Positions 13,701 through 32,000 of a DNA stretch of 32,000 bases are shown here, piece by piece. The stretch is from Nitrosospira multiformis ATCC 25196. Lineage in GTDB: Bacteria; Pseudomonadota; Gammaproteobacteria; Burkholderiales; Nitrosomonadaceae. The notes below the pieces were generated by a model. It did not search any database and had not been told where the DNA came from. It was given only the letters and a program-made list of their open reading frames with translations. The translations under genes were made by a program, and so were the position numbers. Position 1 is the first letter of the stretch; each line of letters begins with the position of its first letter. The stretch is from contig NC_007614.1 of NCBI RefSeq assembly GCF_000196355.1, positions 1,050,001 to 1,082,000 of the forward strand, given 5' to 3'.

Positions 13701-16700
13701 GCCTTGTCCGCTATCACCGACGGATCGATGCGCAACTGGTAGGTTCCGGGCAGCAGGTAGCCATTCGGCAGGATGGAGAGCGATTGGCCGAAGGAGCGGG
13801 TATCCAGCCGCACATCGATTGCCCTGTCATCCGCCGTGCCCGCGACGCCATCCGAACCGGTGTTTATCAGCTCAATGCCCGACAGGTTCAGCTTGGCAAG
13901 ATCCAGCGGCTCGTCGAACGACACGTCGATCGAACGGACGAAGAAGACGCGTGCGCCCTCATCCAGGCTCATCTTCGTCACCTGGGGTGCGAAGGTGTCA
14001 GGTACCACGTCCAGCACCACCGGATCAGACAGTGTGGCGTTGCCGCCTGTATCCGTGGCGCGGACCTGGATGGTCAGCTTGTTGCCGCTTTGTGCGATCG
14101 TTGGCGCCTGTGCGAACAGTTCGAACGGGAAGGCGGCGTCGTTCGATACCACCTGCCCGTTGACCAGCAGCTCGACATTGCGCACCTGCACATCATCGGT
14201 CACAGTGGGAATGACACTGACCGTGCGGCCTTCCAGCACCTGGATGCCGGCCTTTTCCGGATCGACATCGATCCCATCCACCTCGATGGATACCGTGGGG
14301 GCGACACCCTTGGTATCAAACCCTATGTAGTTGACGATCTGCAGTCCGGCTGCGCCATCGGCGACGAAGGCGAGACCGTTGGCGAGCACCACATCCCTGG
14401 GAGCAGCCGGCAGGTTGATGCGGGTGATGAAGCTGCCGGTATTGGTGGGATCGTTGCTGCTGCTGACATCCAGTGCATAAATCTGCTCGCCGCGTGGACC
14501 GCGCAGATTGCCGGCGGTGACGAGCAGCCCGGAACCGGTGGCAGCCAGCGACTGACCGGCTATATTGGCTGCATCGATGCTGCTAATCAATTTCAAGTCG
14601 GCAGGGTCGGAGACATCGACCGTGCTGTACCCCTGGGTGAAATCGGTGGCAGTGCCGACATAGGCCACGCCGCCACCCACGAAGAGCTTGCCGCCGCCGG
14701 CGTCCAGCACTAGCGAATCGCGCAGGGTGAGCAAATCGCCATCTATACTGATTGCACGCAGCGTACGGTTGGTATCCATGGTGTAAAGTGTCTTGCCTTC
14801 GAGCGCCAGGCCGGTCAGTGTCGTCCCACTAGAATTCCCCAGATCCAGAGTCTGGCGTATATCCCCCGTATTCAAGTCCACGGCTGCGACGCTATCCCCA
14901 ACTGCGATATAAGCGAGACCATCGCGCACTTTGACCTGCGTGACGAAATCGCCAAAGGTTATCGTTTGTCGCAGGACGGGCAAAACAGGGTTCGAGACAT
15001 CGATGATATGCAGTCCACCCTCGTTAGCCGCCACAGCGGCCAGTCCACGGACTGCATCTACGGCGACATCTTTGTTTGAGCCGGAGAGCTTTAGCTCGGC
15101 AAGTAATGTAGGTTTGGTGAACCGTGATACGTCGACTACGGCCAGACCAGAACTACCGGTGGCGACATAAGCAGTTAGTTTCGACGCATCGGAAGTAGAC
15201 CCTGCAACTGACACCGCTTCGGCTGTGCCCTGGAGAGTTGTCGCAGACACCACACCTGTGGGAATGCCAAGCCCGCCAAGTGGATTGAGGCCCTGCAGTA
15301 ATTCAGAGAAGTCAAGAATGCCGTCTCCGTCAGTATCTCGATCTAAAAGATTTGTTCCAATTATTTTTTCAGCAACATCAGGTAAACTGTCTGAGTCCAA
15401 ATCAATAAGTCTGCTAGCTGACAAATAGAGCGGATTTGGAATTCTCGTGCTTGTACCGGAGGCGGAACTACTGAATTCGGCCCAACCGTAGCGGCCAGAA
15501 GCAGCGTCATAGATTTCAACTCTAAGCTTAGAATCGGCAGGAAGCATCGTATCTATGGTTCCATCTGCAGCTGTTTGTCCTCGAAGTTCGAACCCCGTTC
15601 TTAAATCCGTTATCAAGAAAAAAGCGTTGCCTGGGTTTCCTACAATGCTAGCTATTCCATCTGCTAGTGTACTGCCTACATTAAGGACCTTTGATTCAAG
15701 ATCGCCTATGCTGATCGCAGAGGAGTCGATTAATTCCCGTTGGTGAGCCAATAAGGCAGTAAAAGTGTTGTTGGTGGCTGCAAGCAGGTCATCCGATGTA
15801 GTGGCGACAGCGGTCTTACTTGAATTCGCTATGAAAGCTACTCCCGATGTGAGAATACTTCCCGATTCTGTCGATTGCGCTTCAATATCACCGATTCCCA
15901 GCGCGACTTCGATAGCATCAAGACCTATGCATACCGCTTCGAAGCCCGCTTTTGTTATTAAATTCTTAATGCCCCCTCTAACCAAGTCTAAAAGGCTTTC
16001 GGCGTTGCTAACCGTAAACTCCGCGACATCTATCGCACTGCAACCGACCTCGACCCAAAAAGTCGGACAATCATGCTCCTTTAGGGCTTTAACAAGCGAG
16101 TCGCAGGCTTCGCTAAGTTCCTCAAGGATAGGTTTAGCCGCTTCAAGCGTTTTTTCCAACAGTCCAACAGGATTTTTTGACGTCGCTTGTTCGACCACGG
16201 CCTCATATATAGCTTTCCACCGATCCTTGTTCGTTTTGATTAATTCAAATCCTAATCTAAGGGCACTAGGATCCCCACCACTATCAACCTGCTTTTTAAA
16301 TTCGGCAAATTGTTCAATCATTGTGGTGGCCATTTGAGCAGACTCACTCATGATGGTATAGAACTCACGCAGACCCGCAATGTTCTTGACCAGATTGCGT
16401 ATGAGACTATCAACAGCGGCAGGGACGCGATCTAAGAGCGCATCCTTTGCTGCACCTAACTCGTCACAGTCTTCCTCGGGTAATGGATCTCTTGGGGGAT
16501 TCGGACCATTAGTCGGCGAGCCTGGCGGTGTCATCCCATGCCACCCCGGTGCCATAACCCCTGACCCTTCATCTGACACCACTGTTTTTCCATCGGCAGA
16601 TACCGTCCCGGTGCCGCTGATCACCAGCAATCCGGTCGTATGATCGAAGCTCAGAATGTTGAGCTTAGTTCCCGGAGCAGCATTGAACACGTTCGGGAAG

Positions 16701-19700: not shown

Positions 19701-22700
19701 CCCACCAAGGCGACCTTGGCTGCGTTGGTGATATGGTCCCCCACCGTTCCGGAATCGGAAGTGACCGCGAGGTCGAACACGGGCTGGATGGGTGCGGCAG
19801 TATCGAGCGTGAAAGCGACATCGATCTGTGCGGAAGCATTTCCTGCCGCATCGAAAGCCTGCAGATGGAGGGTATGACTGCCATCGGTCAATGTCCCGCC
19901 GAAAATGGTTTCCAGCCGCGGAAGATCGAGTACGAACTGACCATTGCTGCTTACATGGCTGATTATCTCCCTGTATTGCGCGACAGGAGTGGCATCGAAG
20001 CCCGCGAGCAGGCTGGTGACCGCCACATTGTCGCTGGCTGTGCCGGAGATGCTTACGCTGGAAGTGATGCCATCCGTTGCGCTGGCACCGGTATCGCCAG
20101 TCAAAGCGGCATTCAGTTGAGGCAGAACGGTATCACCGCCGGCGGGTATCTCGCTGCGCCTGATCGTCTGGCTGAATTCACTGCTGTTACCCGCCCCATC
20201 GGTGGCGCGCGCGGTAAAGTCGTTATCACCGAGTGCAAGGGGGACCTCACTGAACGAGAACGCTCCCTGGCTGTCGGCTACCGTATTGAGGGCTGCTTCG
20301 ACCAGATCGACACGTGCACCGGGCGAAGTGGAGCCCGTCAGAACCACGGTGTCGTTAGTCGTTGTATTGTCCCCGAGCGTGCCTGTGTCCGACTCGGGCG
20401 CGAGCCCAAGCGTCGGGGTCGACGGGGCGGCCGTGTCCAGAACGAATTGCAGTTCGAGACTCCGCGTGTTTCCGGCTCCATCCCGAGCAATGAGGTGCAG
20501 GTTATGCGCTCCATCAGCCAGCGGTGCGCCATTGATTGCCGCCAGTTGCGCCGAAGTAAGGTTGAACGTGCCATCCGTTTGAACGCTGTCGAGGATTTCC
20601 TGGTATTGCTCTGGCGGCATGGCATCAAAACCTGCCAGGAGACTGGTTAACCCGACATTGTCGCTGACCGTGCCGATAATGCTTCCGTTGGAAGTGATGC
20701 CGTCGGTTGCGCTGAAACCGGTGTCGTTGACCAGCGCCGCGTTCAGTTGTGGCAGGACAGTGTCCCCGCCGCTGGGTATTTCGGTGCGTGTGATCTTCTG
20801 GCTGAACTCACTACTGTTACCCGCCACATCGGTAGCTCGCACGGTAAAGTCGTTATCACCCAGTGTGAGCGCTACCCCGGTAAAGCTGAACGCACCTTGA
20901 CTGTCCGCTACTGTGTTGAGGGCAGCCTGGACCAGATCGACACGTGCACCGGGCGAAGTGGAGCCCGTCAGAACCACGATCTCGTTAGTCGTTGTATTGT
21001 CCCCGACGGTGCCCGTATCCGACTGCTGCGCTAGAGCGAGCGTCGGTACCGATGGAGCAGTCGTGTCGACCGTCAACTGCAGAGCGGGAGACGCACTGCT
21101 GACGTTGCCAGCCAGGTCTTCCGCTGTTGCGTTCAACGTATAGGCGCCGTCAACCAGTTTATCCAGCTGGTACTGAGTCTCAGGCCCCGACCTGATCCCG
21201 GCAACCAGTAATGCGCCCATATAAAGCCTGATGGCGGTTTCCGCTTCCGCGCTGACGTCGATCCTGGGGGCGTTGATGTTGGTAACGTTGTCATCGTTTG
21301 CGCTTCCGCTATCATCTCCTGCCGCAAGATGGACGCTGGGTGAACCAGGTGCGGTAGTATCGAGAATGAATCGGAGATCGAAACCCTGCGTGTTTCCAGC
21401 TTTGTCTGTGGCGACAAGATGCAACGTGTGCTCGCCGTCAGTCAGCGCCGACCCGTTGATGACAGCCAGTTGGGCGGCGGTAAGAGTGAGTGTGCCATCC
21501 GCCTGCACATCGCTGAGGATTTCGGAATACGGGGCGAGGAGTGCATCATCAAAGCCAGCCTTGAGCGATGCAATACCATTGGCATCCGTAATCAGTCCTT
21601 CAATCGTGGCATCGAATGTTACATGGTCATCAGCACTGCGTCCGGTATCATTTGAAAGCGCTGCCTTTACGCTGGGCTTCGTGGTATCGATTGTGGATGT
21701 GGCCAGTTGCGGCAGGGTCGATGGCGAGACAGACAGGCCCTCGATCTTCACTAGGCTGGGAAAAGAGCCCGCAATGATGTTCGAAGATGAGCTCAGGCTG
21801 CCGCCAATGATGATTTCCTGGATTCTGCTCGCCGTGCCGCCAGTCACGACATCGTTGCCATCATCGAATATTCCGTTGCCCGGGTCGATGCCGACCCAGA
21901 CATGGGAGTCGATGACAGAGCCGGTAACACGGAGCCGGCCAAGCAAGCCTGAGGCAAACTGATCCGCAGCACTTCCTGTGCCTCCGAGCCCACCATCGCT
22001 CCCCAGGTTTGCACCCACGATAATGCGCGCCTGCTCCAGGTTACCACCCACCTGTAGCATCTGCAGGGATGGTGTGGAAAGCTGGCCGCTGGCGGTGCCC
22101 CTGGTGGAGAATAAAGATAAAGGAGCTGCAAACGCAGCTTTCCATGATGCGTCCGTTGACTGCGCGACTATCTGGCCTGCACGACCCAGCACTATCCATG
22201 AGCCACCACTGATGGCGCCGCCAATCTGGGCATTGACAAGGGTATAAGAGGTGGCCGGGGCGCCGGACAAGTTGATATCCGCGGAGAACTCTCCAGTGGC
22301 AGTCAGCGTACCCAAAGAAGGTCCATTGATGGATGCGGGGGCAGAACCAGACGCAAGCCATTCCTGTACCGCCACCGTATTGATTGGCGTTGCACTGGTC
22401 AGTACCAGTGAGCGTACACTTCCTGCGCTGAACGCCATGCCGGACCCCGTCCCTTGCACCAGCAACGATGAGGTTCCCTTCACGTCGCCTAGCGTAATGT
22501 TCTGAATACTGCCTGAAATGCGGGCGGTTCCCAGTAAATCCAGGTTCGATGCAAGAATGGACTTGATATTACCGTCGACTGCCAAGCCGGTCAGAAGTGA
22601 ATGACTCCCGCTGGTGGTGACGGTCAACGCGCTTGTGGTATCGGTAGAAAAGAGCGACAAGGCAAGGCCCGCTCCGGATCTCGTTACCTCGCCCCATCCG

Positions 22701-23389
22701 GGGCCACTCAGGGAGAAAGTGACGGCTGTGCCATTTGTATCATTGACGCTCAGCGATGTCGGCAATGCATGACCTGGAACCTGGCCGAACTGCCGCGCGA
22801 TATTCAGGGCTCTCTCCGCCAGGAAAATGTTATTGTTTTCATCTTCTTCCGCAATTTCCTGATCTGGATCGGCCGAAGCGATGAGTTGATAGCTGCCTAT
22901 ATCGAGGGCGCCGACTGAAACAGGGACATCGAGTGTCGTGGATGTCCCAGGCAATAATTCCGGGGAAGAACTGGTTGCGGTACCGATCAGGGTATCGCCA
23001 GCATCCAGTTGTGAATCGGATGAGGCGAAGAGTTTTACGGTAACGGGTGTGGCGGGTGCATCGCCCTGGTTGGTAATGAGCACCGAGATTGAGGCGGGCT
23101 CCGTAGGAAGGAAATCGCGGTCAAGCGAAGATGAGTCAATTGAACCGATGAGATCGGCACTCAGCAGCAATCTCGGCTCAAGCGCTTCAATCACCAACCG
23201 CTTGTGCTGTGGAATATGATGGGAATCTTCGGGCGTACTATCCTGCACGCCTGTCCTGCGCAACAAACTATCGAGTAGCTGGCTAGCACGGTTATTATTC
23301 AATTGCTTACGCTGGTCCAGACGTGCACGCTGATTCTTGGATTTTTTTGCCACGAATATTCCCCTTAGTAGCGTATTATTTGGCGTCAC
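7739..23389 (-). CDS. Giant (5,216 aa) multidomain extracellular/surface protein with N-terminal LEPR-XLL motif
   Basis: This is a single uninterrupted 15,651-nt ORF. Domain order N to C, read by eye: a basic N-terminus with LEPRLLLSAD; a CARDB-like domain; a G/S/T-rich beta-helix-like region; tandem Ig-like pairs (VDTTAPS...). Next come a PAP2/vanadium-haloperoxidase-like domain, SbsA-Ig/Ig-like domains, a carboxypeptidase-regulatory-like domain and a helical Cys-containing module. These are followed by a Ca-binding-like DRDTDGDGILD motif, LVIVD repeats (GLAVVDVS, GLHIIDVS, GLQIVNY), cadherin/Ig-like domains and many IPT/TIG-like domains. The C-terminal part has a lectin-like beta-sandwich and two NHL-like beta-propellers. 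The annotated start at 23389 is GTG with AGGGG directly abutting it. An alternative GTG at 23353 (VAKKSKNQ...) has AAGGGG plus a 7-nt spacer and may be the real start. Confidence 0.9.
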   Translation of the reverse strand: MTPNNTLLRGIFVAKKSKNQRARLDQRKQLNNNRASQLLDSLLRRTGVQDSTPEDSHHIPQHKRLVIEALEPRLLLSADLIGSIDSSSLDRDFLPTEPASISVLITNQGDAPATPVTVKLFASSDSQLDAGDTLIGTATSSSPELLPGTSTTLDVPVSVGALDIGSYQLIASADPDQEIAEEDENNNIFLAERALNIARQFGQVPGHALPTSLSVNDTNGTAVTFSLSGPGWGEVTRSGAGLALSLFSTDTTSALTVTTSGSHSLLTGLAVDGNIKSILASNLDLLGTARISGSIQNITLGDVKGTSSLLVQGTGSGMAFSAGSVRSLVLTSATPINTVAVQEWLASGSAPASINGPSLGTLTATGEFSADINLSGAPATSYTLVNAQIGGAISGGSWIVLGRAGQIVAQSTDASWKAAFAAPLSLFSTRGTASGQLSTPSLQMLQVGGNLEQARIIVGANLGSDGGLGGTGSAADQFASGLLGRLRVTGSVIDSHVWVGIDPGNGIFDDGNDVVTGGTASRIQEIIIGGSLSSSSNIIAGSFPSLVKIEGLSVSPSTLPQLATSTIDTTKPSVKAALSNDTGRSADDHVTFDATIEGLITDANGIASLKAGFDDALLAPYSEILSDVQADGTLTLTAAQLAVINGSALTDGEHTLHLVATDKAGNTQGFDLRFILDTTAPGSPSVHLAAGDDSGSANDDNVTNINAPRIDVSAEAETAIRLYMGALLVAGIRSGPETQYQLDKLVDGAYTLNATAEDLAGNVSSASPALQLTVDTTAPSVPTLALAQQSDTGTVGDNTTTNEIVVLTGSTSPGARVDLVQAALNTVADSQGAFSFTGVALTLGDNDFTVRATDVAGNSSEFSQKITRTEIPSGGDTVLPQLNAALVNDTGFSATDGITSNGSIIGTVSDNVGLTSLLAGFDAMPPEQYQEILDSVQTDGTFNLTSAQLAAINGAPLADGAHNLHLIARDGAGNTRSLELQFVLDTAAPSTPTLGLAPESDTGTLGDNTTTNDTVVLTGSTSPGARVDLVEAALNTVADSQGAFSFSEVPLALGDNDFTARATDGAGNSSEFSQTIRRSEIPAGGDTVLPQLNAALTGDTGASATDGITSSVSISGTASDNVAVTSLLAGFDATPVAQYREIISHVSSNGQFVLDLPRLETIFGGTLTDGSHTLHLQAFDAAGNASAQIDVAFTLDTAAPIQPVFDLAVTSDSGTVGDHITNAAKVALVGTSEPGVSISVVGTSISALANNLGNFQLAGISLQDGANVLTLRAIDAAGNTSERSLTFQRTGEITQDQALFWNSKALEAIRLDVTDPPIATRLLAMVSLAIYDSLAAIDGTQAYLVKLSATGPVSADAAVAAAAHRVLTVEYPGQKGTFDAALAASLAKVAEGPAKDAGIALGTAVADTVLALRGNDGAQTFVDYPGSTELGKWRPTGPMFDVPDQPQWSTVTPFALSAANQFRPPAPPALDSSEYAQSVEEVRSVGSANSTTRTADQTEQAQFWADGMGSYTPPGHWNQIAEEIARAQGNSLSANARLFAMLNIALADAAIACWDAKYTYGLWRPETAINNADLDNNAATIKEEGWKPLLITPAHPEYVSGHSTFSAAAAGILNQVFGNDTSFSTTSYTLPGVTRSFDNFDAAAGEAGRSRVYGGIHYEFTNQAGQTLGHQVAEAVLARFALDADTQAPMVIAQDTPVALNTNLALSGQILDNLSGVVSAQYRIDGGDLKDLALDADGKFSITTAFALDGTADGSHTVTILARDAAGNLAAGFNRSFTLDTQAPALDLASLADGATLSAASRVTGTADPTGTWLVELFYTVDGGQKHSLIFDTTTGSFDQALILGNLGIGDHKLALNARDAAGNTANVIREVKVEALAPFTITRVTPTGGTGDVGVTYRPQVFFSREVNPNTLTANTFYATGPDGTKLDTTIVPALDGSFAWVFFDKPMPGGSNITLHLNGSAIRAQADGAFLDADGNGAAGGEFTWSFTSISSTVVAGTKLVGKVVDPGPDLLPMTFDDIRRGPDGVIHTPDDVFLNPIAHAKVYIIGLEDKVVYTDANGNFELTEVPVGEVKVVVDGRTATNAPEGIFFPEMVMSTQLLPGITNTVMGSMGSNEERLANADRREVYLPRVQTSALQQISQTETTVVTVDDKSAPDLTGEQRSQLTLTVPPGSAVGFDGKVLDDVKIGINTVPPELVRDMLPPGVLQHSFDITIQAPGVNTFTQPVQITFPNVFNAAPGTKLNILSFDHTTGLLVISGTGTVSADGKTVVSDEGSGVMAPGWHGMTPPGSPTNGPNPPRDPLPEEDCDELGAAKDALLDRVPAAVDSLIRNLVKNIAGLREFYTIMSESAQMATTMIEQFAEFKKQVDSGGDPSALRLGFELIKTNKDRWKAIYEAVVEQATSKNPVGLLEKTLEAAKPILEELSEACDSLVKALKEHDCPTFWVEVGCSAIDVAEFTVSNAESLLDLVRGGIKNLITKAGFEAVCIGLDAIEVALGIGDIEAQSTESGSILTSGVAFIANSSKTAVATTSDDLLAATNNTFTALLAHQRELIDSSAISIGDLESKVLNVGSTLADGIASIVGNPGNAFFLITDLRTGFELRGQTAADGTIDTMLPADSKLRVEIYDAASGRYGWAEFSSSASGTSTRIPNPLYLSASRLIDLDSDSLPDVAEKIIGTNLLDRDTDGDGILDFSELLQGLNPLGGLGIPTGVVSATTLQGTAEAVSVAGSTSDASKLTAYVATGSSGLAVVDVSRFTKPTLLAELKLSGSNKDVAVDAVRGLAAVAANEGGLHIIDVSNPVLPVLRQTITFGDFVTQVKVRDGLAYIAVGDSVAAVDLNTGDIRQTLDLGNSSGTTLTGLALEGKTLYTMDTNRTLRAISIDGDLLTLRDSLVLDAGGGKLFVGGGVAYVGTATDFTQGYSTVDVSDPADLKLISSIDAANIAGQSLAATGSGLLVTAGNLRGPRGEQIYALDVSSSNDPTNTGSFITRINLPAAPRDVVLANGLAFVADGAAGLQIVNYIGFDTKGVAPTVSIEVDGIDVDPEKAGIQVLEGRTVSVIPTVTDDVQVRNVELLVNGQVVSNDAAFPFELFAQAPTIAQSGNKLTIQVRATDTGGNATLSDPVVLDVVPDTFAPQVTKMSLDEGARVFFVRSIDVSFDEPLDLAKLNLSGIELINTGSDGVAGTADDRAIDVRLDTRSFGQSLSILPNGYLLPGTYQLRIDPSVIADKAGNALTAPIVLNFTIRPASDIRAGSGMPEITQAPSANPGQEIGLPVPFDPATARTTFNVIDASGNKTTRDVVVSRFDATQGLAYFRVPLDAVTGEIQVFSQVGSTKTTFADGTFLLQILPVIVDVQVQGVASDGSSATVVISGLGFVEGNNSEYRFGSDVVLDAGVNTGPDVYYGYVNGVYTANGQVTVTVPLSSGTFGPISIRTAGGASASYSVNLSGIAATALSGTPADADEASANPGQAVTLQGTGLSTATDVLLRWTDVNGDARMTRLSPTSAAADGSSATLVIPEYANGVASLQVFGSASQPLLQIVPKLTGFDVQSGALYLYGSGFVEGASSYGFAGATVADSRVNGGVDVYYNTDQNGRAYLDNSTLPRHGLGGLTVTTAGGTSAALDLNLLRSGSDTGAIGLLGDVAVDPVTGALWVSDNSNPGHILRIDEASGAILQTITLTDAFGAPYAFSLAGLQVLGEAINLNGTNVPQGSLLLFNGYASPDRVVAVNAANGAVIASLTLGQNYDLAAGVFDAASGHLFVTDARNSGNRIVEINAATGAEIASFAVPFTTYSYAGLTIDPVTGNLWLGTYSAAATLVEFTRTGTEVRRIDLASQGVNDSEISGLAFAPDGSLRVASSNGVVYRIDPAHDDAVQRATLTQVLASATDGVAAQSGVAAANIGQIIELRGTNFGAGTQVLFNTRDSNGNTSIVAIKPLAINDAGTRLQVLVPDLAATGEVKVVNTGASNLGFTSYNDAIYRNVTTTFTANSSTAVLRFADGGLQDINDESWGIDNVVVKQGSTTVFADTFEGGAKANWSNQITNRNALGTFSEFSGRFGNASQVLNLSGLTAGQTYTLSFDLYALDSWEGSHPTAGPDLIQITADGQQIFRETFANYYPDAQSVQTYGASSGIRLQIVPTLSGLSGRPGSDNAFNLIGSGFMEGTSTVTIGGRVFTGAAVNGVDVSGTRNDTLGVIAPRTLDGAIRVTTEGGYAEIAGSAFGTQPTVLFTGLTASANSGTVADATKASANTGQTITLTGQAFTAQTLVQFTGIDDSGALGTITRTGTPGSGGTSLSIEVPALARTGKVTVLGSNAGFDLQIVPTLKSLGGSLAPGSTVVLEGTGLVGSELTVQIDGRATGSFNVRTVFEGLGSSSADQQLLTLTVPTGVTTGIITVSTRGGTASLAGRNLSGISAIAGSGTPASSGIASANTGQTITLQGSGLQGSDRVVFTTIDSSGRLAERAIVPASVAADGNSMTVVVPVDATTGTLRLARDSSGVLLQIVPTLGDISASLNSIYNGGFLTLSGSGFAEGAIAVLFGGQRLNDSSRNTGPDVYQGYVDGKTALGYGENTTLNLIVPTNVPTGPIQVATIGGTSAAFGLSITGITASADSGTPANSTQASAVPGQTIKLQGSGLDASTDVVFETVDNNGNRSQLIVRPATVNAGGTEIQVAVPLNAVTGTVRVVGDRNASALALQILPVIVDVQVQGVASDGSSATVVISGLGFVEGNNSEYRFGSDVVLDAGVNTGPDVYYGYVNGVYTANGQVTVTVPLSSGTFGPISIRTAGGASASYSVNLSGIAATALSGTPADADEASANPGQAVTLQGTGLSTATDVLLRWTDVNGDARMTRLSPTSAAADGSSATLVIPEYANGVASLQVFGSASQPLLQIVPKLTGFDVQSGALYLYGSGFVEGASSYGFAGATVADSRVNGGVDVYYNTDQNGRAYLDNSTLPRHGLGGLTVTTAGGTSAALDLNLLRPGSDTGAIGLLGDVAVDPVTGALWVSDNSNPGHILRIDEASGAILQTITLTDAFGAPYAFSLAGLQVLGEAINLNGTNVPQGSLLLFNGYASPDRVVAVNAANGAVIASLTLGQNYDLAAGVFDAASGHLFVTDARNSGNRIVEINAATGAEIASFAVPFTTYSYAGLTIDPVTGNLWLGTYSAAATLVEFTRTGTEVRRIDLASQGVNDSEISGLAFAPDGSLRVASSNGVVYEALV
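7755..9309 (-). repeat. 1,555-bp direct repeat, C-terminal copy
   Basis: Same as above. Identity starts at 7755, which is inside the Tyr codon 5 codons before the stop (VVY-EALV* here versus VVY-RIDPAHDD after the internal copy). It ends at 9309 (..GTATCTGCA). Confidence 0.95.
11802..13356 (-). repeat. 1,555-bp direct repeat, internal copy (IPT/TIG-like domains + NHL-like propeller)
   Basis: Identical to 7755-9309 at a constant offset of 4,047 nt, except A12502 versus G8455. The giant-protein translations and the antisense ORF translations in other frames are identical between the copies apart from that site. Confidence 0.95.
14325..15230 (-). other. LVIVD-repeat beta-propeller-like region of giant protein
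   Basis: Repeated motifs are AYVATGSSGLAVVDVS (15131-15175), AANEGGLHIIDVSNP, AYIAVGDSVAAVDL, AYVGTATDFTQGYSTVDVSDP and AFVADGAAGLQIVNY (~14326-14357). Confidence 0.6.
15885..16485 (-). other. Low-GC, predicted all-helical Cys-containing module inside giant protein (no family recognised)
   Basis: EEDCDELGAAKDALLDRVPAAVDSLIRNLVKNIAGLREFYTIMSESAQMATTMIEQFAEFKKQV...EELSEACDSLVKALKEHDCPTFWVEVGCSAIDVAEF...AVCIGLDAIEVALGIG has amphipathic heptad-like spacing and no beta-sandwich signatures. Hand GC counts of sample 60-nt lines give ~38% at 15601 and ~45% at 15961, versus ~70% at 8401. Confidence 0.5.
18335..19515 (-). other. PAP2-superfamily / vanadium-dependent haloperoxidase-like enzyme domain embedded in giant protein
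   Basis: The domain runs GEITQDQALFWNSKALEAI ... YGLWRPETAI ... ITPAHPEYVSGHSTFSAAAAGIL ... AGRSRVYGGIHYEFTNQAG ... The three PAP2 boxes are present in order: (K/R)xxxxxxRP-like WRP, PSGH-like VSGHS, and SRxxxxxHxxxD-like SRVYGGIHYEF. The VSGHS box is encoded at ~18581-18610. Confidence 0.7.
19520..21690 (-). repeat. In-frame tandem repeats of Ig-like domain pairs, period 630 bp (210 aa), about 3 units
   Basis: ACCAGATCGACACGTGCACCGGGCGAAGTGGAGCCCGTCAGAACCACG occurs at 20301-20348 and 20931-20978. GGTAAAGTCGTTATCACC occurs at 20213-20230 and 20843-20860. Both pairs are offset by 630 nt. The protein units are TTAPS.PTL.LA..SDTGT.GDNTTTN..VVLTGSTSPGARVDLV.AALNTVADSQGAFSF... + PQLNAAL..DTG.SATDGITS... 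Confidence 0.75.
22820..23107 (-). other. CARDB-like domain of giant protein
   Basis: ISVLITNQGDAPATPVTVKLFASSDSQLDAGDTLIGTA...LLPGTSTTLDVPVSV...GSYQLIASADPDQEIAEEDENNNIF follows the CARDB pattern (N-G ... D-x-LIG ... G-x-Y ... D ... E-x-NE-NNN). Confidence 0.5.
23150..23353 (-). other. N-terminal LEPR-XLL-type region of giant protein (basic, non-hydrophobic leader ending in LEPRLLLSADL)
   Basis: The sequence VAKKSKNQRARLDQRKQLNNNRASQLLDSLLRRTGVQDSTPEDSHHIPQHKRLVIEALEPRLLLSADL has LEPR at codons 70-73 (nt 23171-23182). It has no hydrophobic h-region and no twin-Arg motif. The motif name is recalled from NCBI protein naming (LEPR-XLL domain-containing protein). Confidence 0.7.
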
Positions 23390-23449: not shown

Positions 23450-23995
23450 TTACCTCTTTTGATACTTTCTGCGGCCCATGACAAAAGCAGCCAGGCCAGC
23501 ACCGATCAGGAACAAACTTCCAGGTTCAGGAAGCGGATTGCCTGGATCGATGGCTGCTGGCATAGTTGCGCTGATCGCAACAACATTAAAACTATCATCG
23601 AATATTTCATATGATTGTGAGCCCGGAGTGCCAGAGCCGGTCCAATCAAAGCTCACTATAAAATCAGCGGGCAATGCGCCAGTTCCATCAGTTGATGCCG
23701 AGAAAATGCCGTCAGCAGCAAATATGAGATCTGGACCTATGGTGTAGGCGAACCATCCGGAGGGTACAGATTCGGCGGCGAGCCCGACGAAGTCTGTGGG
23801 AGCGAACAATACATTGAAACCTTCAAACGCAGTCAGTGAACCCGTGACGTGATAAGTAACTTGCCAGCGATCGGTTCCGGGTGTGCTATCCGTAAGGTCG
23901 AACATTGTATAAGTCACCGTCAACGCCGCCGCACCTGCGTTTTGGATTGCAAAGACCAATATGCCTGCAGCAATTAATTGCCTTAAAAGTTTCAC
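23450..23995 (-). CDS. PEP-CTERM sorting-domain protein (secreted, exosortase-type C-terminal anchor)
   Basis: The C-terminus is PLPEPGSLFLIGAGLAAFVMGRRKYQKR*, i.e. a PEP motif, a hydrophobic helix and a basic tail. I call the start at GTG 23995 (VKLLRQLIAAGILVFAIQNAGAAA, a good signal peptide), 6 nt after GAGGTG. The ORF-track start at 24076 adds 27 non-signal residues. The stop is 60 nt upstream of the giant ORF on the same strand. Confidence 0.85.
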   Translation of the reverse strand: MKLLRQLIAAGILVFAIQNAGAAALTVTYTMFDLTDSTPGTDRWQVTYHVTGSLTAFEGFNVLFAPTDFVGLAAESVPSGWFAYTIGPDLIFAADGIFSASTDGTGALPADFIVSFDWTGSGTPGSQSYEIFDDSFNVVAISATMPAAIDPGNPLPEPGSLFLIGAGLAAFVMGRRKYQKR

Positions 23996-24391
23996 GAATA
24001 TCACCTCATTTTTATTATTGTGCCCCGGGAGCGTGAAAACCCTTGACGAGGTTTTCCGTCTTATCCTTACCTGCAATTAACCATCATTACTGGACAACGT
24101 GGTTGGAAACAGAGTGTTTTGCGGTGGAGGGAGATACAGCAAAATCGATAATGCAGGGAGCTGCCTTCCTTGCATCCACTTTAGAAAACTCACAAGCTCA
24201 AGCACTAGCATAAAGTATGCCAAATTATTGATTATGAATTCATTCATGGAGTTGCGATAAAGGAGGGAGAAGTCTTGATGATAAGTGTAAAAATTATCGA
24301 CATTTACCAGAAACAATATCGCCCAGAGTGTGAGTTAAAATAATTTGAATGCCGTCATCACCATGCGAACCAAACAAATGGCAATATAATA

Positions 24392-25461: not shown

Positions 25462-25598
25462 GTAAGAAAAGGTAATTAAGTATGAAGTCGGCAAGTATTT
25501 ACTCTGTTTAACTTGCCCTCTTATCCTTTTTTTACTCTTTTCTTCCCCTTAATTGCCACCTCAATACCGCGCGGGCTGGCTTTTCTACCTTTTCTTAC
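25462..25598. repeat. Perfect 13-nt inverted repeat GTAAGAAAAGGTA / TACCTTTTCTTAC flanking a polypyrimidine-rich spacer just 3' of the primase gene
   Basis: GTAAGAAAAGGTA at 25462-25474 has its exact reverse complement at 25586-25598, overlapping the primase stop codon (25595-25597). Nearby are an AT tract TTAATAATTTATATATATAG (25377-25396) and tandem AAATAAGT(G/C) 9-mers (25403-25420). Confidence 0.6.
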
Positions 25599-28051
25599 TT
25601 TTTTTCGTAAGGGAAATATCGGGTTGCCGGTCGTCCGCCGGTTTGTTCCTGTTCCTGTTCAATCAATGGCGGTGCCAGATTCAACAGAGTTTTCAGCGCG
25701 TTGTCCACCTGCTTCCTTCGACTGTTTGGCCAGTGCTTTCGCAGGTTCGTTAGCGTGATGCCAGGATTTCTTGTAACGATAACCAGCACTTCAGCCTCGA
25801 AGGGATCCAGTCCGCTTTCATCATCTCTACAGTTAAAGACATAAGTTACGCTTGAATTCCAGTATTCCACCCAGGCAATAGCAGCATGAAGATCTCTTGG
25901 CTCAATGATGAGGCGTTTGTCCATTGCAGCAAAAACCATTGCAAGCATTCGCGCATACATCTCTGATCTGGCCAGCAAGCTTCCTGCCTTGCCCTCGCGA
26001 TCTCGCGTTATGGTTTCGTATTGCTCCACCCATAAGTCGCGAGCAGCATCACTGAAGGTAACCTCATACAGATTATCGTCGTGCAGATTCCCATGGGTCA
26101 CACCCATAATGGCGTCGGTTACCCGCTGCGCCAACTCTTCAATCTTCGCCTCTGGAGTTGGAAGAGGCAAGGCAACTAGCTTGGGGCGATACACGTGGAG
26201 AATCATGAACCGGTTCAACAGTCCGTTTGCCACATCGTTTGCAGTCGCCTTCTCGCGCAGTTCGTGGCTGGTAATGTGCCCTAGAATCGAGACATGAGGC
26301 CGCGTTGCCCGCGTAGGGTTGGTTTTGGTAAGCGGTTCGATGTCGCGGCCATCAAACAGATTGCGGATAGTGGCAGACAAGGTATTGTTGTCGCGCCGCA
26401 GCTGGGAGAGGACATTATCAAATTCACTCTCGATAGCCAGTAGACGCTTGTCGGTCACACCCGGGTCGCCGCCCCTGCCTTTTTCATCCGCCTCAATTGG
26501 ATCACGAATGGCCCAGGCAATACCTTCCCCTGTGGAGAGACCGCCCGTATGGCAGCGTAGGCTTTCCTCAACCTCTCGCTGTTCATTGATCAGCGCATTA
26601 GCGCGCCTGAAGATCTTGCGTACAGTCGATTCTGCCGTACCCTTGCGCGCCTTTCCGCTTTTGCCCACGATAAGTGGGAAGGGCCTGCAATGGATTACCG
26701 CATCGCCTATAGACTGGAATAATGCTCGGCCCGTCATTGCGCTGAAGTAGGCCACGGCATTTGCAGCAACCGCCACCCAATGGGCTTCGCTGTTAGCGCA
26801 AGCCACCTCGACTATGTCATGGATGAGCGGAGGAAAGCCTATTTCCGGCATCTTGGGCGGGGCAAGTGGAGCGTCACATTCCCCAGCCAGGAGCGCATCC
26901 TCCTGCTTGATTGCTTCCGGTTGCTCCCACTTGCCCGACTTAAACGTCCTACTCACTTCTATTGTCTTCGCTATTTCTGATGTCTCAGCGTCGGTTGCAG
27001 CCTCCGTATCTGTCTGGGACCGGAGGTTAATGGGTAAACCATCCAAGCCGACCTGATCACCTGCTGGAACAAGGGCTTGATGTGACATGAGGTGAGGAGT
27101 GAGCTGAGGATCTGAAACAGGCCGGGGTGGATCACCTACCTTCCTTGCTGCAGCGATGGCTTGATTTACCATGCCCTTCCCCGATAGCACATGCAGATCA
27201 TTGAAGTCGGTCGGCCTAGTACTCATATCACGCTCAGCAAAATCAGGGACAGCCAATAGTCCGCCGACGGTAAGAGCCGCCTCCGTAGCCTTGGTCAGGC
27301 CCGGGTTACCCTCGGTCCACTGATCATTATCACTACATACGATGAGAGTTGCCTCCTTAAACCGTTGCCGCATTGTCTGCACCACTAACGTGAGATTGCC
27401 TGCGTTGAACGCGACGGCGACAGCATGACCTGTCGCCTCATGTATGCTGCAACCCGTGGCATACCCTTCGGCAATGCAAATCACATCGGCAGGATCGCCT
27501 AGGACACAGCAGCCCCCGCTGATTTCACCTCCACTTAAGAATCGTTTAGTGCCGTCCTCCTCGATGAATTGGAGGCTTGTAAGCTTATCGGCTACGTAAA
27601 CCGGAACAAGTAGCTGATTATCGTGCTGCCTGATGCCACCACACGGCTTGATACATTTCCTGAGCAGGTAAGAATGGTCAGTCCTTGCCTCTTTCGCGCC
27701 CGCGTAAATTTCGGCTGCCCGCCTTGCAGCGGCTACCTGAAGCTGACGCCGTTCTTCAGCTATTTCCTCTCGGGCCTTCTTTAATGCCTCCTCGCGTGCT
27801 CTACGCTCGGGAGGTGATAAGCTCTTCTCATCTTTGGCGTTCCAGATAATCTGCGTTCCCGATTTAAAATCGCCAAACACCGCGCTGTTCCCGTCGGGAA
27901 AAAGCTTGGCGTAACCGCTGGTATTGCCATTGGCCTCGTTGCCGAGTGGAAAGCGGAGGAACCCGCTTCCGCTCAGCTTCAGCGGTTCTGGTCTGTACTG
28001 ATGTCGGTGCATGAATTCGACCAAATCGGGGGGTAGAAATGTTCTGATCAT
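25595..28051 (-). CDS. Bifunctional primase/helicase-like replication protein (N-terminal P4-alpha-like primase region + Toprim + DUF3987/YfjI-like P-loop domain)
   Basis: 818-aa ORF. The N-terminus (RFPLGNEANGNTSGYAKLFPDGNSAVFGDFKSGT) is typical of island/P4-type primases. The Toprim acidic motifs are ICIAEGYATGCSI and IVCSDNDQW. The C-terminal half, with IVGKSGKARKGTAES (P-loop-like), resembles DUF3987 proteins found next to alpA in CP4-57-type islands. ATG at 28051 follows AAGGAGG. Confidence 0.85.
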   Translation of the reverse strand: MIRTFLPPDLVEFMHRHQYRPEPLKLSGSGFLRFPLGNEANGNTSGYAKLFPDGNSAVFGDFKSGTQIIWNAKDEKSLSPPERRAREEALKKAREEIAEERRQLQVAAARRAAEIYAGAKEARTDHSYLLRKCIKPCGGIRQHDNQLLVPVYVADKLTSLQFIEEDGTKRFLSGGEISGGCCVLGDPADVICIAEGYATGCSIHEATGHAVAVAFNAGNLTLVVQTMRQRFKEATLIVCSDNDQWTEGNPGLTKATEAALTVGGLLAVPDFAERDMSTRPTDFNDLHVLSGKGMVNQAIAAARKVGDPPRPVSDPQLTPHLMSHQALVPAGDQVGLDGLPINLRSQTDTEAATDAETSEIAKTIEVSRTFKSGKWEQPEAIKQEDALLAGECDAPLAPPKMPEIGFPPLIHDIVEVACANSEAHWVAVAANAVAYFSAMTGRALFQSIGDAVIHCRPFPLIVGKSGKARKGTAESTVRKIFRRANALINEQREVEESLRCHTGGLSTGEGIAWAIRDPIEADEKGRGGDPGVTDKRLLAIESEFDNVLSQLRRDNNTLSATIRNLFDGRDIEPLTKTNPTRATRPHVSILGHITSHELREKATANDVANGLLNRFMILHVYRPKLVALPLPTPEAKIEELAQRVTDAIMGVTHGNLHDDNLYEVTFSDAARDLWVEQYETITRDREGKAGSLLARSEMYARMLAMVFAAMDKRLIIEPRDLHAAIAWVEYWNSSVTYVFNCRDDESGLDPFEAEVLVIVTRNPGITLTNLRKHWPNSRRKQVDNALKTLLNLAPPLIEQEQEQTGGRPATRYFPYEKK

Positions 28052-28344
28052 GACACCTCCTTTGCCAGAAATTCCCGAACAGCAGCTAACACTGCCCTTT
28101 GTCTTCGTCCCCCGCGACGATGTTTAGCTGCACAACCTTGGCATAGTTGGCAGAGATGCAGGATTGGTAAACGCAGGCCGTCCGGTGCAACATGCAATTC
28201 TGCAGCTGGCTGAAAAAGCGGTGTGAAAGGTTTGTGGCAGGATGCGCAGCATGTGTATTTGGCGATCGTGACTGGCAACTGATGCTTTTCCTCCAGCAGC
28301 TGAAGAAGTCTTTTTCCCTGTGGCACTTCAACGAAGTCATCCAT
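28048..28344 (-). CDS. Small Cys-rich (zinc-ribbon-like) protein, translationally coupled to primase
   Basis: 98-aa ORF with CCASC ... CQLCQGC cysteine clusters. GGAGG lies 7 nt before ATG 28344. Its stop overlaps the primase start (ATGA, 28048-28051). Confidence 0.6.
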   Translation of the reverse strand: MDDFVEVPQGKRLLQLLEEKHQLPVTIAKYTCCASCHKPFTPLFQPAAELHVAPDGLRLPILHLCQLCQGCAAKHRRGGRRQRAVLAAVREFLAKEVS

Positions 28345-28480: not shown

Positions 28481-28711
28481 TCATTTCGCCCCCTTTCCTG
28501 GATTAGCAGGTGGGCGACTTGCTATCCAGGCGTGTATTTCATCGCTGCGCCATCCAACTGCTGAGCCCGACAGCTTTACCCTGCCAGGGAAAAGGCCCAG
28601 CGCTTCCAGCCGATAAATGGACGAACGCGACAGCCCGGTGAGTCCCTTTACCCTAGGGATCCGGTAAATCTCATACCATGGAGCTGCGTCAGGAAGATTT
28701 TTGGTTTTCAT
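28481..28711 (-). CDS. alpA: AlpA-family phage/island transcriptional regulator (excisionase-like HTH)
   Basis: 76 aa. The segment IYRIPRVKGLTGLSRSSIYRLEALGLFPGRVKLSGSAVGWRSDEIHAWIASR matches the AlpA/MerR-type HTH pattern (GLSRSTIYRL...FP.PVKLG.RAVGW...E...WI). AAGGAG precedes the ATG. Confidence 0.85.
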   Translation of the reverse strand: MKTKNLPDAAPWYEIYRIPRVKGLTGLSRSSIYRLEALGLFPGRVKLSGSAVGWRSDEIHAWIASRPPANPGKGAK

Positions 28712-28952: not shown

Positions 28953-29855
28953 TTATCGCTGGTTCAGCTTCGAGGACTGTTTCTGTTTGTACGTTCCGCC
29001 GATACCGTCTTTGTAATAGCGGAACTTATTGCGAAGAGTAGCTTTACTTATTGATTTATCTTCCTTACCAATCCGATAATTGAGCTTGTCACCGTCGATT
29101 TCATGCAACTGGATTGAAGGAGTTTTTACAGTTGGATTTTGGCATTCCTTCTCTATAACCGACCAGAATGCCTCGAAATTGTCGGGTTCGCGCTGTTGGC
29201 TGCACAGTTTCTGGTACAGTCTTCTAAAATGCCGATGAATGGGACTCAGAGATCCTCGTGTTCTTCCAGATGTAAAAGAAGCTTGCCGGCCTAGAAGCAC
29301 CTCAAGTGATGCCGTGTGATAGCGCAAGAGATGAGCTTTCAGTTGTGCGACGCATTCGATGATCCACTTTTTGTCACCCGGGGATTGCTGAATTGTAAGT
29401 GCCAAGTACAAGGCTTCCCCACATGCGAGTAACGCAGGATCGTAAACTTTCAACGCCTCACCTTTCGTATTTCCCTGCGGGTTCCTTGGCATTCTCCAGC
29501 AGCCCTCTCGGAGATCATTTAGGCGCCACCACATCTCCGCATGATCCTCTAGAGCCACCCTCAAGTCCGGGTCATCATCCAGCGTCCATCCCTCTGGTTC
29601 CCAAAACCTTTCATATTCAATAAAGGCTTCCCGCAGCTTCCTGATCAGAAAGGTAAGGGGATCGGCAGTAAGATTGCGCCATAGCTCGTCCTGATTGCCA
29701 TCCCAAGTCGTCTCCGGTTTCTCCAGCACCACCGCCGCTCTACACATCTCATCAAGCAATTCATTTACATGATCCAGTTCGTACAGGTCTTGAAATATGA
29801 TTGTTGCTTGCTCGCGCGGATATCGAGCGGGAAGGGTCTTTTTTTCCATTTCCAA
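28953..29855 (-). CDS. Hypothetical protein (300 aa, no family recognised; Trp/acidic-rich)
   Basis: This is a long ORF on the same strand as its neighbours. The ORF-track start at 29855 is TTG, and an in-frame ATG at 29849 (MEKKTLPARY) is the more likely start. I see no recognisable catalytic or TM motifs. Confidence 0.6.
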   Translation of the reverse strand: MEMEKKTLPARYPREQATIIFQDLYELDHVNELLDEMCRAAVVLEKPETTWDGNQDELWRNLTADPLTFLIRKLREAFIEYERFWEPEGWTLDDDPDLRVALEDHAEMWWRLNDLREGCWRMPRNPQGNTKGEALKVYDPALLACGEALYLALTIQQSPGDKKWIIECVAQLKAHLLRYHTASLEVLLGRQASFTSGRTRGSLSPIHRHFRRLYQKLCSQQREPDNFEAFWSVIEKECQNPTVKTPSIQLHEIDGDKLNYRIGKEDKSISKATLRNKFRYYKDGIGGTYKQKQSSKLNQR

Positions 29856-30362: not shown

Positions 30363-31619
30363 CTAAATAGCCGTGACAGTGGCCCTCATGCTTTCGTCCT
30401 TCTTACAGTCCTGGAGCAGAAATACCCCTAGCAGGCGCCTTTTATCTTCAGGGGAAAAGGCCCGGATTTTTTGCTTATATCTCCGATTGAAATTCAAAAT
30501 TTTTTCGCTGATATACCTATCTAGGTTAATCATCAAGTGATCATCTGTACAAAAGGAATACGTGTTACCCCATCCTCTAATAGTGCTACTAACCTCATTT
30601 AGCGCATCCTTGTAAGTAGTTTTTTCGTTTATGCATCGGAGCGGACTACTGGATTTTTTAATAACCTTGTCAAATATTTCATTCACACGATCTCTAAGTC
30701 TTTTTATGCTCTTATCAGAAGGACGAATGCGGTCAGGTCTTACACTACATCCTAGAAATTCAAATCCTTTATTGGATACCCCATGCTCAGCCTTATCGGG
30801 AGAGTGACGAGGGTCATATACACTTAAGTTTAGTTTTTCCAAGAAAGCTGATGCGCTAGCAAAGGCTTTAAATGCTTTTGATTCACTTGGTGCAAACAAA
30901 ATGAAGTCGTCGATATATCGGATACAGACGATGCCTCGGGCATTCATTTTTTTATCAAAATCATCTAAAAGCAAATTGCAAAGTACGGGAGAAAGGCAGG
31001 AACCTTGAGCAACACCTTTTCCTTCCAATGGAAAAAGTTCCTTGTCACGGCCTAAGGTTATAAGATTACTCAACTCTGTTGTTGTTGCTTGAGTTAACAA
31101 CGTATTGAAATCATCATCCTTAGATGCAGAAGTAATAATTTCTAATGCTTGTGAACGAGGAATATTATCGAAGAAGGCACAAATGTCAGTTCGAATAAAA
31201 TAGGGCTTTTCCAGGGCTGTTTTATAAGCTTTGAGAATCGCTTGAGGTACACCGATTTCTGCAATTCCGCCAAAATTAAAACCAGAGTCTAATTTAGCTC
31301 GGACACTTGGAATTTCTTGTACAACATCTAGCAACGCTCGCTGAACAATGCGATTAGGAATGGGGGATATTACTATCGGTCGCTTTTTGCTAGGGTTATT
31401 CTTCTTCTTAACCGCGACCCCATAGCTTTGAGAAAACACGTACCGTTTTTCTCTCAACTGATCGGCAATCCGCCGAAGGTTTTTTTCTAATGAAAGGGAG
31501 AACTGCTCGATTTCAGTTCTAATTGTAGGCGATTTAGATGAAATACCGTTTTCGTATATGGACTGCCAAGCACTTCTTAGACGATTGTTACTGTACAGCT
31601 TGCGATAAAGCTCTGCCAT
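30363..31619 (-). CDS. Free-standing group-II-intron-like reverse transcriptase (YIDD active site, thumb/X-like domain, no En/DNA-binding or extra domain)
   Basis: 418 aa. RT motifs appear in order: KKRPIVISPIPNRIVQRALLDVV (RT1-2), YFIRTDICAFFDNIP (RT3/A), GVAQGSCLSPVLCNLLLDDFD (RT4/B), IRYIDDFILFA (RT5/C) and GFEFLGCSV (RT7). The thumb-like motif is IRGWGNTYSF. The gene is AT-rich (hand counts ~38-45% GC) relative to its neighbours. Confidence 0.9.
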   Translation of the reverse strand: MAELYRKLYSNNRLRSAWQSIYENGISSKSPTIRTEIEQFSLSLEKNLRRIADQLREKRYVFSQSYGVAVKKKNNPSKKRPIVISPIPNRIVQRALLDVVQEIPSVRAKLDSGFNFGGIAEIGVPQAILKAYKTALEKPYFIRTDICAFFDNIPRSQALEIITSASKDDDFNTLLTQATTTELSNLITLGRDKELFPLEGKGVAQGSCLSPVLCNLLLDDFDKKMNARGIVCIRYIDDFILFAPSESKAFKAFASASAFLEKLNLSVYDPRHSPDKAEHGVSNKGFEFLGCSVRPDRIRPSDKSIKRLRDRVNEIFDKVIKKSSSPLRCINEKTTYKDALNEVSSTIRGWGNTYSFCTDDHLMINLDRYISEKILNFNRRYKQKIRAFSPEDKRRLLGVFLLQDCKKDESMRATVTAI

Positions 31620-32000
31620 GATTTATTTTTGTTGGGGCTCCCATCGGCAAGCAACCCACCCGCTCAAGACACTTCATCTCTCAGGCGAAACCATAAATGG
31701 CCCAGCCTGGCCTAGGCACGTATTGCGTGCTTCGGCGTCCTCGTAACATTGTGCGGCTCCACCAGCTGGTGGCCCGCTAAGCACTAAAACCGAGACGATG
31801 ACAGCTAAGCTGTACAACCACTTCCGTAAAGCACGGCTGGCACGTTTTTGCTTGCGGTCTTTATCCTCATTGCCGTCTCCAATTCTATCGTTTTTGACTG
31901 CGTTGGCAACCGCAAGTTAGCGTCGCCCTCCCCCAGAAAATAAGTCCTTCAACCGTCCGATGAGAGCCTCTATAAGGCTTTGCTCCGGTTAACTTTACAT
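31620..32000 (-). ncRNA. Candidate structured 5' leader / RT-associated non-coding RNA (continues beyond window)
   Basis: No ORF of 60 aa or more occurs on either strand in the 381 nt upstream of the RT. There is a 14-nt perfect palindrome CCACCAGCTGGTGG (31759-31772) with extendable flanks GCGG../..CCGC. Further hairpins are GCACG-tattg-CGTGC (31716-31730) and ACAGC-taa-GCTGT (31801-31813), plus others. No Shine-Dalgarno is evident before the RT ATG. Confidence 0.35.

Follow-up and report, generated by a model that had tools for sequence, protein, structure and literature searches.

What kind of enzyme is encoded by the free-standing reverse transcriptase (RT) gene that lies, behind a long leader, at the end of a 32,000-nucleotide (nt) stretch of Nitrosospira multiformis ATCC 25196 (NC_007614.1, positions 1,050,001 to 1,082,000, hereafter the window)? 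An earlier note made from the letters alone had left two answers side by side: an anti-phage system consisting of an RT and a non-coding RNA (ncRNA), possibly of an uncharacterised clade, or a repair RT resembling the group II intron-like 4 (G2L4) enzymes. We find that the locus is the G2L4 RT module of N. multiformis, and the second answer was correct and even understated. An exact-sequence look-up identifies the 418-residue protein as ABB74237.1 / WP_011380282.1. Because 'a G2L4 RT (ABB74237)' of N. multiformis is the BLAST seed with which Park et al. 2022 (bioRxiv 10.1101/2022.03.14.484287, later Cell) collected the family, this protein is the founding G2L4 sequence. Taken as a whole, the locus is very probably best explained as a G2L4 RT module: a repair enzyme of microhomology-mediated end joining (MMEJ) by homology, with a repeat-bearing leader.

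The finding as such is already known. The G2L4 group was defined in 2008 by Simon and Zimmerly, Toro & Nisa-Martinez 2014 described YIDD as its distinctive feature, the family was published again in 2022, crystal structures exist and the upstream repeats are on record. New here, across 54 loci that carry these long direct repeats (LDRs), are their concerted evolution, a set of covarying helices, a promoter-like box, a short open reading frame (ORF) led by a Shine-Dalgarno (SD) sequence, a near-invariant motif and the open frames that run from it.

The protein belongs structurally with its family. In a search against all PDB sequences the best matches are two structures entitled 'Group II intron-like 4 reverse transcriptase', 9d5x and 9d4s (251-253 bits; 9d5x_A, E 4e-74, RT residues 1-405), and the next match, a group II intron RT, reaches just 70 bits. 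The crystallised enzyme, from Pseudomonas aeruginosa AZPAE12409 (WP_034031052), is 38% identical over the full length and shares the YIDD, the maturase-like thumb and the lack of a DNA-binding and endonuclease (D/En) region. Its gene, too, stands behind two LDRs and a spacer in a low-GC, horizontally acquired setting. YIDD occupies residues 235-238 and is invariant in alignment A1, which holds 36 family members 41-93% identical to the query. Pfam places RVT_1 at residues 71-292 and a weak, sub-threshold GIIM (maturase/thumb) match at residues 334-383, and the group-II-type motif GVAQGSCLSP is present. Profile searches with Pfam, PADLOC and NCBIfam found no further domain, whether endonuclease, D/En or effector. 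Rfam gave zero matches at the gathering score in the whole window, and in the 2.9 kb around the gene (9100-12000 of the second assembly, L001, described below) its only match at E<=1 was the tRNA, with no group II intron or retron RNA.

The RT is thus a free-standing descendant of group II intron RTs. The N-terminal extension, fingers/palm and maturase-like thumb have been kept; the intron RNA is gone, and so are the domains for DNA binding and endonuclease activity. The intron RT/maturases GsI-IIC RT and LtrA, its next-best structural relatives, likewise have RT0-7 and such a thumb. It differs from the RTs of mobile group II introns in having neither intron ribozyme nor D/En domains, in carrying YIDD for YADD and in scoring below the NCBIfam cut-off. 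On these points the earlier note had read the sequence well: a 418-residue RT with its domain (only the thumb match is weak), a YIDD active site, no intron RNA, no endonuclease or fused effector, a start ATG without a preceding SD and a gene more AT-rich than its surroundings (38-42% G+C in the RT gene vs ~54% in neighbours) all stand.

By homology, the N. multiformis RT is predicted to repair double-strand breaks by MMEJ. The published account describes the P. aeruginosa G2L4 RT as a homodimeric DNA-repair polymerase that joins such breaks by MMEJ, and attributes to the Ile of YIDD a preference for strand annealing over primer extension. The evidence consists of knockout and complementation phenotypes under DNA damage, together with MMEJ biochemistry; the P. 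aeruginosa enzyme is the only one for which MMEJ / snap-back activity and the homodimer are known.

The leader raises the more interesting question. Park et al. reported LDRs of ~140 bp separated by a ~240-bp spacer, within 1 kb upstream of the RT, at ~70% of G2L4 loci, and our literature search found no later paper that mentions them. The window holds the RT-proximal 381 nt of a full upstream module of ~530 nt. We recovered the locus with its flanks from a second N. multiformis assembly, GCA_900108135.1 (L001), in which ~1 kb without called genes precedes the RT. The window ends at L001 position 9618, leaving LDR2 and most of the spacer inside and LDR1 just beyond the edge; the extension past position 32,000 that the earlier note had proposed therefore found the missing copy, and its 'at least 381 nt' proves to be the proximal part only. 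In L001 the direct repeat measures 119 nt with 98% identity (9485-9603 and 9830-9948, spacing 345 nt), and a core of 113 nt is 100% identical between the copies. The 14-nt palindrome pointed out in the earlier note is present and forms the tip of the first LDR hairpin. The whole module measures ~1.8 kb and runs in the order putative -10 box, LDR1, spacer, LDR2, conserved 45-nt segment and RT gene, with a hairpin, the promoter-like box, the SD-led short ORF and the CAAAAACGTGCC motif in the spacer (Table 1).

A scan of one genome per species yielded 80 G2L4 loci, spread over Proteobacteria, Acidobacteriota, Nitrospirota and Bdellovibrionota; the identity of their RTs to the query is 31-56%. The repeat pair is present in 54 loci, with L001 counted among these. 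LDR length is 105-142 nt, except for one 95-nt pair that a contig end cuts off and the three-copy match of L028; the spacing is typically 334-376 nt (772 nt in L010), and LDR2 ends 50-117 nt upstream of the RT match. Among relatives, homology starts 5-55 nt upstream of LDR1 and stops 18-60 nt past the RT stop, and no protein-coding neighbour recurs among the 80 loci. Given these tight limits and the lack of a recurrent neighbour, we take the unit to be the leader plus the RT; a conserved partner protein was considered and rejected on the same count. The LDRs are the best-conserved part of the module (88-95% identity vs 70-78% across the whole 1.8 kb). Park et al. found the G2L4 unit at differing genomic sites, often with recombinases nearby.

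The same anatomy extends to the crystallised branch of the family. The Pseudomonas locus L085, with an RT that shares 89% identity with the crystallised protein, has two LDRs, MQKRANSARAAAKLFLAALCFVCLLV.., the same CATGCAAAAACGTGCC motif, the MQKRA frame and both long-range pairings described below. It differs from N. multiformis in LDR length (142 nt vs 113-119 nt) and in the RT start, which is a TTG with AAGGAG as against an ATG without SD.

The two LDR copies evolve in concert. Of the 54 pairs, 35 are identical and the remainder 98.3-99.3% identical; when related loci are compared, they differ at 380 sites where the two copies of a locus share one state, as against 16 sites that differ between the copies of a single locus. 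As a pattern, gene conversion keeps the two copies identical. The 26 substitutions found between copies have no adenine bias in either direction.

Copy number varies as well, since L028 carries three copies in a perfect 506-nt tandem duplication of period 376, at -980 to -99 relative to the RT. Eight loci that first appear repeat-less (L021, L026, L031, L040, L065, L074, L078 and L083) are single-LDR alleles with the order promoter box-LDR-a'-b'-RT, which is exactly the recombination product of LDR1 x LDR2. One genome record holds both forms, L039 with two LDR copies and L040 with one. Short-read contigs often break ~86 nt upstream of the RT (L002, L003, L084), so some of the single-copy alleles may be assembly collapses. 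Separately, the L010 spacer (-860 to -214) contains a ~420-nt insertion, with a 246-nt inverted copy downstream of the RT (+1423 to +1656); the insertion is probably a small mobile element. Upstream tandem repeats in L010, L048 and L073 are unrelated to the LDR module, and the idea that they are older, decayed LDR units was rejected.

Does the leader fold? In a single sequence it gives no sign of doing so, as the window leader folds no better than its shuffles (z -0.69). The comparative evidence is what makes the stems credible. In an alignment of 48 leaders (A2), analysed with RNAalifold and then by counting pairs, one helix having been added by eye, five helices emerge: a 3' hairpin in each of the two LDRs, the spacer hairpin H3, and two long-range helices, a:a' and b:b'. 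In this structure 94.1% of cells are paired, compared with 77% in column shuffles (0/500 reach the observed value) and 28-45% when the partners are slid, and compensatory changes occur in 30/32 helix pairs. The earlier description of the leader as rich in stems is thereby upheld comparatively and fails on single-sequence folding. Its expectation of a conserved structured RNA is confirmed, for a region already on record as the LDRs.

The helix a:a' (H2) has 10 bp and connects the stretches that immediately follow LDR1 and LDR2 (RNAalifold columns 218-227:696-705), with compensatory changes in 8/10 pairs; at the N. multiformis locus, where MAFFT misaligns, we read it by eye as 4+5 bp with an internal loop. 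The helix b:b' (H4) has 8 bp and joins the loop of H3 to a sequence resembling CCAACAGG that lies 16-30 nt ahead of the RT start; it is 98.7% paired and all 8/8 of its pairs covary (e.g. GC:26 / AU:20). H3 itself reads AGCCG..CGGCU in the family (94.8% paired, 6/6 pairs compensatory). Because the two long-range helices cross, they form a pseudoknot, and the helices need an RNA that spans the whole distance between the LDR1 3' edge and the RT start.

A further covarying hairpin, CGYGCC-loop-GGCRCG, follows directly after the A-run of the motif in most loci (A2 columns 436-460, window ~31822-31844). On the opposite strand T5 would follow the hairpin, which might then act as a weak antisense terminator.

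The leader also carries putative signals for expression. A TATAAT-like box stands 15-25 nt upstream of LDR1 in A2, and the sigma-70-like box in the spacer, the best site of the region (10/12), is kept family-wide as TTGaCa..AAAAA.GTA..T with an invariant A-run in its own spacer. The leader is moreover not ORF-free, contrary to the earlier note, which had called it untranslated. Its SD-led ORF has 21 codons in the window and 12-58 across loci, and crosses the motif in the frame ..K-N-V-P.. (..C-K-N-V-P..). In 40/41 loci including the window, a start codon behind a G-rich SD precedes the motif's AAA codon at -14, -17, -20 or -23, always in the same frame.

One base back, no stop interrupts the ..Q-K-R-A.. 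frame between the motif and the LDR2 end in 36/37 non-redundant loci, the other sense frames being open in 0/37 and 7/37. It encodes an N-terminus with a charge of +3 to +7 followed by a hydrophobic stretch, and has a modest, weak excess of synonymous changes. In 27/54 loci its stop codon finishes no more than 6 nt from the LDR2 3' edge; in the window the TGA (31674-31676) straddles that edge. Most loci (24/41) have an ATG in this frame (M-Q-K-R-A), without SD; the window has AAG there and no in-frame ATG upstream of the basic N-terminus. Past LDR1 this frame runs on without a stop for 120 nt or more in 36/37 loci, the others in 2/37 and 5/37, and ~17/39 loci have a start codon no farther than 6 nt from the 5' edge of LDR1. 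At its edges, then, the repeat has a possible start in copy 1 and a stop in copy 2. Ribosomes translating the SD-led ORF would enter the long frame if they slipped by -1 on C-AAA-AAC; the hairpin after the A-run, taken as a frameshift stimulator, has a spacing of zero, which is unfavourable.

The LDR2 frame can be broken while the LDRs stay identical or nearly so: in L060 one A-to-T difference between the copies introduces an early TAA, and L048 has TAA in place of the Gln codon of M-Q-K-R-A. Two other interpretations of the frames were dropped. A holin/antiholin-like pair does not fit, the LDR 5' edge falling in the middle of the hydrophobic stretch and the LDR1-initiated frame lacking a full helix. 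A DRT2-like 'never-ending ORF' on a concatemer or circle was rejected as a family feature, the LDR spacing being a multiple of 3 in only 15/54 loci, the chance level.

The two N. multiformis assemblies are identical over 11.6 kb save for two 1-nt differences, both of them A5 in the window and A6 in L001, one in the motif and one in the spacer of the promoter-like box. The family consensus at both runs is A5, as in the window. With A6 at both, an upstream ATG comes into frame and LDR1 to LDR2 becomes one ORF, as happens in L001, where the repeat spacing is 345 nt. These differences could be slippage variation or homopolymer sequencing errors.

Table 1. Features of the G2L4 RT module and its context, in window coordinates and, where given, in the second N. 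multiformis assembly (L001)
Feature	Window	Strand	L001	Basis or remark
G2L4 RT gene, 418 aa	30363..31619	(-)		ORF; ABB74237.1 / WP_011380282.1
YIDD active-site codons	30906..30917	(-)		Sequence
b' (GCCGATGGGAGCC), 3' strand of pseudoknot helix H4	31636..31648	(-)		Ends 16 nt before RT ATG
a' (CTTGAGCGGGTGGG), 3' strand of H2	31655..31668	(-)		RNAalifold
a (CCCAAGCTCA), partner of a'			9604-9613	5-14 nt beyond window edge
Open frame (..AAG CAA AAA CGT GCC..), motif through LDR2, encoding KQKRASRALRKWLYSLAVIVSVLVLSGPP...SPER	31674..31855	(-)		
LDR2	31675..31787	(-)		Repeat search, mapped to window
14-nt palindrome CCACCAGCTGGTGG in LDR2	31759..31772	(-)		
GGAG SD (31877-31880) and 21-codon ORF, ATG (31868-31870) to TAG (31805-31807)	31805..31880	(-)		
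Near-invariant motif GCAAGCAAAAACGTGCCAGCC; family consensus CATGCAAAAACGTGCCA	31835..31855	(-)		A2
A5 run in the motif	31845-31849		9724-9729 (A6)	
Sigma-70-like box TTGCCA-N16-TAGAAT	31882..31909	(-)		N17 in L001
A5 run in the promoter-box spacer	31891-31895		9771-9776 (A6)	
Spacer hairpin H3 (AACCGG...CGGTT)	31946..31989	(-)		Covariation, A2
b (GGCTCTCATCGG) in H3 loop, pairs with b'	31955..31968	(-)		
LDR1			9485-9603	Repeat search; beyond window end
AlpA-family regulator	28481..28711	(-)		Pfam PF05930, E 8e-16; context, outside module
Toprim (Toprim_3) and DUF3987 primase-like protein	25595..28051	(-)		Pfam; context

How might such a leader work? We suggest, at roughly even odds, that it controls RT expression in cis. 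Transcripts starting upstream of LDR1 would form the a:a' and b:b' pairings, ribosomes reading the open frames of the leader through the paired segments would melt these helices, and RT synthesis would thereby be coupled to translation of the leader. In the RNA phage MS2 a long-distance interaction links coat and replicase, and we compare the two only in how they would work: in both, a covarying long-range helix ties an upstream translated segment to the region before a polymerase start. The G2L4 module differs in being bacterial and chromosomal, and its b' leaves the start codon uncovered.

Several observations weigh against parts of this account. The repair function rests on one orthologue, 38% identical, and not on the Nitrosospira enzyme. 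In published experiments a G2L4 RT was functional in E. coli without LDRs, and the leader is therefore dispensable for catalysis. Park et al. reported that LDR co-expression 'modulated' survival after DNA damage with the RT protein level unchanged, which fits purely translational control poorly. Segment b' has no overlap with the RT start codon, and since a:a' and b:b' cross, the two may be alternatives rather than simultaneous. The frame after LDR1 has no synonymous excess, and protein-level constraint on it was rejected for that reason; the openness of the leader frames could partly reflect RNA motifs that place stops in the other two. The control model also leaves the identity of the two LDR copies unexplained. 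Finally, the module is set in island-like DNA beside tRNA genes, where one would sooner expect accessory or defence cargo than a housekeeping repair gene.

This last point recalls the other answer offered at the outset, a defence-associated reverse transcriptase (DRT) acting in anti-phage defence or abortive infection. LDR1 and the spacer would supply the ncRNA partner and the cationic, hydrophobic LDR2 peptide a membrane effector, in parallel with the order ncRNA-SLATT-RT of DRT10. DRT10 consists of ncRNA, SLATT and RT, and UG17 is the former G2L3 (PMC12632851; bioRxiv 10.64898/2026.04.29.721553). The likeness is real in that a group-II-like RT follows a conserved structured RNA and a conserved small frame for a basic, hydrophobic peptide, with RT-sense RNA 20-fold more abundant over the LDRs (Park et al.); tRNA genes adjoin and the DNA is an island with AlpA and primase, 25% of G2L RTs are reported to lie close to defence genes, and the best specific PADLOC match is UG17, at full length (142 bits, RT residues 5-389). 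The generic RT model scores equally, however, and a UG17 match is to be expected because UG17 as the former G2L3 is a sister group-II-like lineage; G2L4 is a separate clade, already characterised. No SLATT-5 gene was found with Pfam and PADLOC among the flanking ORFs, and PADLOC matched neither neighbours nor peptide. The DRT10 ncRNA, of ~137 nt, templates a 7-nt tandem-repeat complementary DNA (cDNA), whereas the G2L4 RNA has long direct repeats and shows nothing like a 7-nt repeat template (no search for ACU template motifs was made). In the window the peptide frame has no start codon, and in L048 and L060 it is broken, yet the LDRs there are identical or nearly so. Published phenotypes concern DNA damage and repair, with the RT alone enough in E. 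coli, and the family occurs in 0/50,697 phage records and on 1/72,556 plasmids. We consider the defence explanation unlikely.

Less likely still, and in our view quite improbable, is a faithful, non-mutagenic form of retro-conversion resembling a diversity-generating retroelement (DGR), in which the RT would reverse-transcribe the RNA of one LDR and the cDNA would replace the other copy, keeping the 'template' copy and the copy embedded at the 3' end of the small ORF identical. It would account for the strong concerted evolution and the varying copy number (three in L028, single-copy alleles elsewhere), and it agrees with a topology and sizes like those of the template and variable repeats of DGRs: repeats of 105-142 nt (roughly 110-140 nt) beside the RT, one at an ORF 3' end with the stop at the repeat edge. 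The extra A in two A5 runs, the sole differences between the assemblies, is the kind of slip expected of an RNA/cDNA intermediate, though homopolymer sequencing errors could produce it too. RecA-dependent conversion between 120-bp repeats 230 bp apart suffices, however, and the RT has the group-II-type GVAQGSCLSP, with G2L4 and group II intron RTs as its closest solved relatives in the search of PDB sequences. There is no Avd-like gene, a conclusion drawn from the absence of any conserved neighbour in the 80 loci. Mutagenesis of the DGR type proper was rejected on the identity of most repeat pairs and on the lack of adenine bias among the substitutions. Hardly credible, lastly, is an overlooked RNA partner, with the gene belonging to a group II intron, mobile or decayed, or encoding a retron RT. 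Its database name is 'retron-type RT' and NCBIfam group_II_RT_mat aligns end to end; the score of this model (TIGR04416, 146 bits) is below its 300-bit cut-off, that of the retron model NF038233 (47 bits) below 235 bits, and the retron, Drt and group II models all fall far short. No intron or retron RNA family appears at E<=1, D/En domains are missing, and the upstream RNA consists of direct repeats and a pseudoknot, not of domains I-VI or msr/msd. The DGR, retron and group II intron readings therefore all fail on defining features.

Beyond the G2L4 repair module with a control leader, we see a small but genuine chance that the G2L4 'gene' is a self-contained retroelement-like module of three or four parts, made of a pseudoknotted RNA, one or two small frames in which the LDR serves as a shared, identical coding segment, and an RT that uses the leader RNA, the repair phenotype being only part of its biology. 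Ribosomes would then pass from the SD-led ORF into one of the small frames by shifting -1 on the invariant C-AAA-AAC, and the RT would either turn one LDR into the other by way of cDNA or else control or deploy a small membrane peptide. Should the RT indeed act on the leader RNA of its own module, G2L4 would form a bridge between domesticated repair polymerases and the DRT and DGR systems, which work from RNA templates. The analysis adds no new system. It gives the LDRs, which have stood without explanation since 2022, a concrete and testable anatomy in which 'two palindromic repeats' become specific, mutable elements, with single- and triple-copy alleles among them.

The surroundings of the module in N. 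multiformis are those of a P4-like island remnant at best. The earlier note had placed the gene in a P4-like element, and part of this stands: AlpA, the Toprim_3/DUF3987 primase as in P4-like satellites, and a tRNA-Ser(GGA) 776 nt upstream of the RT ATG (L001). The integrase and the second attachment site (att) do not: no integrase was found by the tRNA, no gene at all lies between tRNA-Ser and the RT module, and the window holds no att direct repeats, that is, no second copy of the tRNA-Ser 3' end that would mark the attR of the island. Two ORFs between the RT and the primase, of 300 residues (28953-29855 (-)) and 98 residues (28048-28344 (-)), have no Pfam or PADLOC match and are not kept beside other G2L4 modules.

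Elsewhere in the family, L039 presents a bare G2L4 module (~2.2 kb) between direct repeats of a ~70-nt 3' part of tRNA-Val (5187-5256 / 7419-7488). L040 likewise has tRNA-Val repeats and L054 tRNA-His repeats, all three without an integrase. Such a tRNA-flanked bare module resembles a cis-mobilisable mini-island.

Further along the window, an ORF of 5216 residues (7739-23389 (-)) contains CARDB and Big-type domains according to the L001 gene table, with internal duplications such as 8069-8908 and 12116-12955 on the opposite strand, and a PEP-CTERM protein comes next (23450-24076). The pair suggests an exosortase-dependent giant surface protein.

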